Of a DNA stretch of 2,993 nucleotides, positions 2,925 through 2,993 are shown one piece after another. The position numbers were made by a program, and so were the translations under genes. Source of the stretch: Escherichia coli (lineage in GTDB: Bacteria > Pseudomonadota > Gammaproteobacteria > Enterobacterales > Enterobacteriaceae). The stretch lies in NCBI RefSeq assembly GCF_003334335.1, contig NZ_QOWQ01000086.1, one strand, 5' to 3'. Below the pieces are notes generated by a model. That model saw only the letters and a program-made list of their open reading frames with translations. It searched no databases and was not told the DNA's origin. The stretch's first letter is position 1. Each line of letters starts with the position of its first letter.

Positions 2925-2985
2925 CAGAAAATTATTTTAAATTTCCTCTTGTCAGGCCGGAATAACTCCCTATAATGCGCCACCA
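2925..2985 (+). promoter_or_regulatory. rrnB P1 ribosomal RNA promoter: UP element, -35, -10, GC-rich discriminator and start region
   Basis: Seen: A/T-rich UP element CAGAAAATTATTTTAAATTTCCT (2925-2947), -35 TTGTCA (2949-2954), 16-bp spacer, consensus -10 TATAAT (2971-2976), then GCGCCACCACTG with the expected +1 at A ~2985. Established: this is the textbook rrnB P1 architecture, located directly downstream of murI in E. coli; 16S rRNA would begin beyond the window. Confidence 0.88.
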
Positions 2986-2993
2986 CTGACACG

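Follow-up and report, generated by a model that had tools for sequence, protein, structure and literature searches.

The last 69 bases (positions 2925–2993) of the 2,993-base stretch of Escherichia coli DNA analysed here, referred to as the window, almost certainly comprise, as judged by sequence identity, the UP element and core of rrnB P1, the main sigma-70 promoter of the rrnB operon (16S, tRNA-Glu, 23S, 5S), a promoter under growth-rate and stringent control that is situated directly downstream of murI. In an exact comparison, 69 of the 69 bases were equal to the published rrnBP1 non-template strand from -60 to +9 (PMC7822876), the DNA used in that study for cryo-EM structures of RNA polymerase on rrnB P1. 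Positions 78–2993 match the btuB-murI-rrnB region of E. coli K-12 MG1655 with no mismatch (100% identity), and in the K-12 annotation the matching stretch takes in the 3' part of the btuB leader, runs through btuB and murI, and finishes in the intergenic region that precedes the 16S gene. The gene following murI and P1 in the K-12 reference record is rrsB (16S). A preliminary description of this DNA had claimed an rrnB P1 signature at the 3' end and had proposed alignment to a reference rrnB operon as a check. The claim is borne out by the 69-base identity to a characterised promoter and by the position directly after murI, as in K-12, and the alignment, identical over positions 78–2993 and leading through murI to rrsB, agrees with it. 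The promoter itself is already known, a textbook element, from whose reference sequence this copy does not differ; nothing about it is new, and since rrnB P1 is among the best-studied bacterial promoters, biology gains nothing from a further copy.

The features of this region are listed in Table 1, with promoter coordinates numbered from A2985 as +1. Read in order, the letters of the 3' end are cagaaaattattttaaatttc ct c TTGTCA ggccggaataactccc TATAAT gcgccacc A ctgacacg. No other stretch of the window is as rich in A+T as the UP element, and a content of at least 18 A+T bases in 21 is reached nowhere else. A consensus promoter scan identified TTGTCA-16-TATAAT as the sole 11/12 match to the consensus in the window. 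The preliminary description had listed a UP element, a TTGTCA -35 hexamer, a 16-bp spacer, a perfect TATAAT and a GC-rich discriminator within this span; all of these are present where it had placed them, but the discriminator comprises eight bases, of which the GCGCC it had named is only the first five. A terminator scan of the window, in which the total of sites did not exceed that in shuffles, found no intrinsic terminator between murI and P1. Rfam gave no match at gathering thresholds over the whole window, since promoters do not form RNA families and only a truncated btuB riboswitch is present (see below).

Table 1. Features of the murI-rrnB P1 region, in window coordinates
Feature	Position	Strand	Remarks
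murI (glutamate racemase)	2046–2903, stop codon 2901–2903	+	RefSeq annotation of the identical K-12 sequence
Predicted Fis site III, centre -143	2835–2849, within the murI coding region	+	GAACAATTATTGCCC, G-N13-C; identical to K-12; position from PMC2885671
Predicted Fis site II, centre -102	2876–2890, within the murI coding region	+	GCTCGAAAAACTGGC, G-N13-C; identical to K-12; position from PMC2885671
Predicted Fis site I, centre -71	2907–2921, murI-rrnB intergenic region	+	GGTTGAATGTTGCGC, G-N13-C; identical to K-12; position from PMC2885671
First 77 bases of the rrn repeat, also present without mismatch in rrnA and rrnC	2917–2993	.	Coincides with the window end
UP element	2925–2945 (-60 to -40)	+	CAGAAAATTATTTTAAATTTC, 18/21 A+T; identical to the published rrnBP1 DNA (limits from PMC7822876)
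-35 hexamer TTGTCA	2949–2954	+	5/6 to consensus
Spacer GGCCGGAATAACTCCC, 16 bp	2955–2970	+	One base below the 17-bp optimum
-10 hexamer TATAAT	2971–2976	+	6/6 to consensus
Discriminator GCGCCACC	2977–2984 (-8 to -1)	+	7/8 G+C; limits from PMC7822876
Inferred transcription start A2985 (+1) and first nine transcribed bases ACTGACACG	2985–2993	+	Position from PMC7822876; matches the published DNA

Taken as a whole, the window showed no enrichment of promoter-like sites in a generic scan (3 sites vs 3.9 expected from shuffles). Since this count is no higher than in the shuffles, the generic scan alone proves nothing, and the near-equal numbers would be in keeping with a chance sigma-70-like match, devoid of promoter function, in an A/T-rich intergenic patch. 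That reading is nevertheless extremely unlikely: the site scores 11/12, and chance alone would give 0.01 sites per window with a 16-bp spacer and no more than one mismatch (seen in 2 of 200 shuffles). In addition, the site is identical to a promoter characterised both biochemically and structurally, it is retained by every one of the 5426 E. coli genomes, and its core is kept upstream of 16S across the Gammaproteobacteria; the results on identity and conservation rule the chance reading out. Which operon the promoter belongs to is a separate matter, as the 69 bases alone cannot name it: between -68 and a point beyond +9 the P1 promoters of rrnA, rrnB and rrnC do not differ, so that these bases hold no operon-specific information and could equally be read as a P1 copy from rrnA or rrnC, or as part of a chimeric join. 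Either origin is very unlikely, because the sequence runs unbroken from murI via the unique bases 2904–2916, the join of murI to P1 occurs in 5426 of the 5426 complete E. coli genomes, and the K-12 gene after the join is rrsB. The upstream murI flank is the feature that separates rrnB from the identical P1 cores of rrnA and rrnC, and its presence in the window names the operon as rrnB.

The rrnB P1 promoter is activated by Fis from sites centred at -71, -102 and -143 (PMC2885671). At the corresponding positions of the window, each of the three predicted 15-mers (sites I, II and III) fits the pattern G-N13-C with an A/T-rich centre and has the K-12 sequence. With these predicted sites included, the functional promoter is longer than the span given in the preliminary description and reaches upstream of position 2925 into the 3' end of murI.

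The mechanism of rrnB P1 has been worked out elsewhere. It was reported that i) the UP element (-60 to -40) serves as the binding site of the alpha C-terminal domains and increases transcription more than 30-fold, ii) transcription starts nine bases after the -10 element, with ATP as the initiating nucleotide, and iii) DksA together with ppGpp inhibits the promoter (PMC7822876). The short-lived open complex, the inhibition by ppGpp and DksA, and the dependence on the initiating NTP were measured on rrnB P1 (PMC7822876, PMC4446441), and H-NS and Lrp likewise act on rrn promoters (PMC4696680). In the window, the base nine positions after the -10 element is A2985, as in the published promoter. 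Stringent control, control by ppGpp/DksA and growth-rate control are here attributed to the window copy through its identity with the promoter studied. In such a copy, the alpha C-terminal domains would bind the A+T-rich UP element from -60 to -40, Fis bound at -71, -102 and -143 would add activation, and sigma-70 would read the near-consensus -35 and perfect -10 hexamers across the 16-bp spacer. The G+C-rich 8-bp discriminator and the start nine bases after the -10 element would make the open complex short-lived, so that output would follow the concentration of the initiating ATP and ppGpp with DksA would shut the promoter down.

The preliminary description had also held that an rRNA operon begins just beyond the window, and had named a downstream sequence lacking P2, leader and 16S as the finding that would speak against this. 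In the identical K-12 locus, all three are there. With window position 2993 corresponding to K-12 locus position 6794 and +1 to 6786, the second promoter, P2 (TTGACT-16-TATTAT), lies at locus 6869–6896 (+84 to +111), and the 16S gene starts at locus 7078 (+293), 284 bases beyond the window end. The motif TGCTCTTTAACAA occurs at +149 in the K-12 leader and is presumably the boxA antitermination element of the rrn leader. After 16S, the K-12 order is tRNA-Glu, 23S and 5S, followed by murB. The K-12 rrnB spacer also contains a match to StyR-44 (RF01830, 122.9 bits; Rfam) just 5' of 23S, at locus 8944–9052. When a query running from murI into 16S was compared with 5426 complete E. coli genomes, contiguity being defined as one place covering at least 80% of the query, a single contiguous place was found in 5404 of them (99.6%), which likewise supports an operon just past the window, and 22 had no such murI-P1-16S place. 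Since the window stops at +9, it is from synteny that we infer that P2, the leader and 16S should follow in the source genome; a rearrangement downstream in that genome is possible though rare, given the 22 genomes. An orphan P1, intact but with the rrnB operon downstream deleted or rearranged in the source strain, would accord with the window ending at +9, with the existence of those 22 genomes and with the carriage of an active IS family by the strain. We consider it extremely unlikely, because the arrangement is kept in 99.6% of the complete genomes and a normal rrn repeat assembled at k=77 would be expected to yield a contig end exactly 77 bases inside it.

A promoter followed by an ordinary rrnB operon also fits the way in which the window ends. 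When exact identity is required, the longest suffix that the window shares with K-12 rrnA and rrnC has 77 bases, and repeats of 77 bases each are present at both window ends, namely the end of an IS1414 element (1–77) and the stretch common to rrnA, rrnB and rrnC (2917–2993). Since both ends consist of exactly 77 repeat bases, the 2993-base window looks like a whole k=77 short-read contig lying between two repeats, as a de Bruijn-graph assembler yields. The end at +9 would thus be the place where a short-read contig stops as rrnB becomes identical to rrnA and rrnC. The remark in the preliminary description that assemblies often break at rRNA operons applies well to this case, in which the window stops exactly 77 bases into the rrnA/rrnB/rrnC repeat. 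Being identical in three operons, the last 77 bases stand for all three in a collapsed assembly; read depth there should therefore be about threefold, and variants called within them are not assignable to one operon. The value of the promoter for annotation and assembly is that it shows where a repeated rRNA operon begins and accounts for the contig end.

At the other end of the window, positions 1–77 do not match the btuB leader and are equal to the last 77 bases of IS1414, a member of the IS256 family. The transposase stop codon is at 41–43, and the element ends with ...CAGGCTC, giving a junction at 77/78; this end was defined from four other IS1414 copies flanked by 8-bp target duplications. 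The cobalamin riboswitch aptamer is split by the insertion, which falls at about +61/+62 in the btuB leader: the Rfam Cobalamin model scores 87 bits in K-12 vs 18.5 bits for the remnant in the window (detected at an E-value threshold), the gathering score being 31.5. The IS1414-btuB junction was absent from all 5426 complete E. coli genomes, and a literature search found nothing specific on IS insertions in the E. coli btuB riboswitch. The duplications at the four other copies (GAGCAAAC, GATCGGTA, GAAGGGGT and GAACGTTT) all start with GA, whereas the bases after IS1414 here (78–85) are GAAAGGTG; this may reflect a preference of the element for certain targets, or else the real duplication may be shifted. 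The astA enterotoxin gene is carried on IS1414, which is known to amplify in some strains (PMC12585946). Three otherwise identical complete E. coli genomes have btuB disrupted within its coding region by IS421, IS2 or ISApl1, suggesting that this gene is repeatedly inactivated by IS elements. If the IS1414 insertion is real and selected, btuB could be silenced, or could be expressed blind to vitamin B12 by read-through from the IS, although we regard this as doubtful; were it true and btuB silenced, resistance to colicin E and BF23-type phages would be the consequence. Further downstream, murI starts (2046) 56 bases ahead of the btuB stop codon (2099–2101), the two genes overlapping in different frames as they do in K-12.

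Compared with rrnB P1 of E. coli K-12, the window copy shares the segment from -60 to +9, the whole upstream activating region and the murI flank, and within the window the only difference is the IS1414 copy located in the btuB leader, 2.8 kb before the promoter. The second promoter of the same operon, rrnB P2, is likewise a sigma-70 promoter with a 16-bp spacer, but it has the hexamers TTGACT and TATTAT and lies outside the window; located about 120 bp downstream of P1, it has been described as the basal-level promoter, whereas P1 is dominant in fast growth (PMC4696680). The P1 promoters of rrnA and rrnC are identical to this one from -68 through at least +25 and differ upstream of -68, in the Fis-site region, as well as in the flanking gene, which is hemG at rrnA and yieP at rrnC in place of murI. 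In an alignment of the seven K-12 rrn P1 promoters, TCCCTATAATGCGCCNCC was invariant, the spacer was always 16 bp long and the upstream region was A/T-rich in each; GCGCCNCC of the discriminator was invariant in 7 of 7. The P1 promoters of rrnG, rrnD, rrnE and rrnH share with the window copy the 16-bp spacer, TCCCTATAAT, the GCGCCNCC discriminator and the A/T-rich upstream region. That of rrnG has the same core and a different UP sequence, while those of rrnD, rrnE and rrnH differ in the -35 hexamer (TTGTGC, TTGCGG and TTGTCT, respectively) and have a GCGCCTCC discriminator and other initial transcribed bases.

Every one of the 5426 complete E. coli genomes contained the 69-mer, the median being four places each, and in 5122 records the best copy was at least 99% identical. 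Four matches to the P1 region were on records classed as plasmids, and some genomes had up to seven P1-like places. Outside E. coli, the pattern TTG-N16-CCCTATAATGCGCCNCC occurred at at least 120 loci in other Gammaproteobacteria, the matches listed including members of Vibrio, Aeromonas, Yersinia, Serratia, Pantoea, Pectobacterium, Photorhabdus, Xenorhabdus, Providencia, Citrobacter, Lelliottia and Parashewanella, as well as a BD1-7 clade genome and a Steroidobacteraceae MAG. Among the gammaproteobacterial loci listed, the -60 to -40 region averaged 78% A+T, and the 5' end of 16S lay at about +267 to +440 in 18 of the 18 listed loci with at least 480 nt downstream. Even distant Gammaproteobacteria (the Steroidobacteraceae MAG and the BD1-7 clade genome) had CCCTATAATGCGCCNCC as an exact core, a 16-bp spacer and 16S about 270–280 nt downstream; the locus in the MAG (2862–2897) has a consensus TTGACA -35 hexamer and no A/T-rich UP region (48% A+T). 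Under a strict 16S motif, P1-like promoters of Photorhabdus seemed to lack 16S, but all of them proved to have it once the motif was relaxed. The listed loci mostly end less than 400 nt downstream of P1, even that from the complete chromosome of Providencia vermicola, which storage may explain. The idea that assemblies of other species also break at rrn P1, as read from these short downstream flanks, was dropped because the locus from a complete chromosome is equally short.

The core architecture is conserved in the seven E. coli rrn operons and across the Gammaproteobacteria. The P1-type rrn promoters of this class have in common with the window copy the TTG-N16-CCCTATAATGCGCCNCC core, an A/T-rich region at -60 to -40 and a 16S gene downstream, whereas their -35 hexamers, UP sequences and leader lengths vary.
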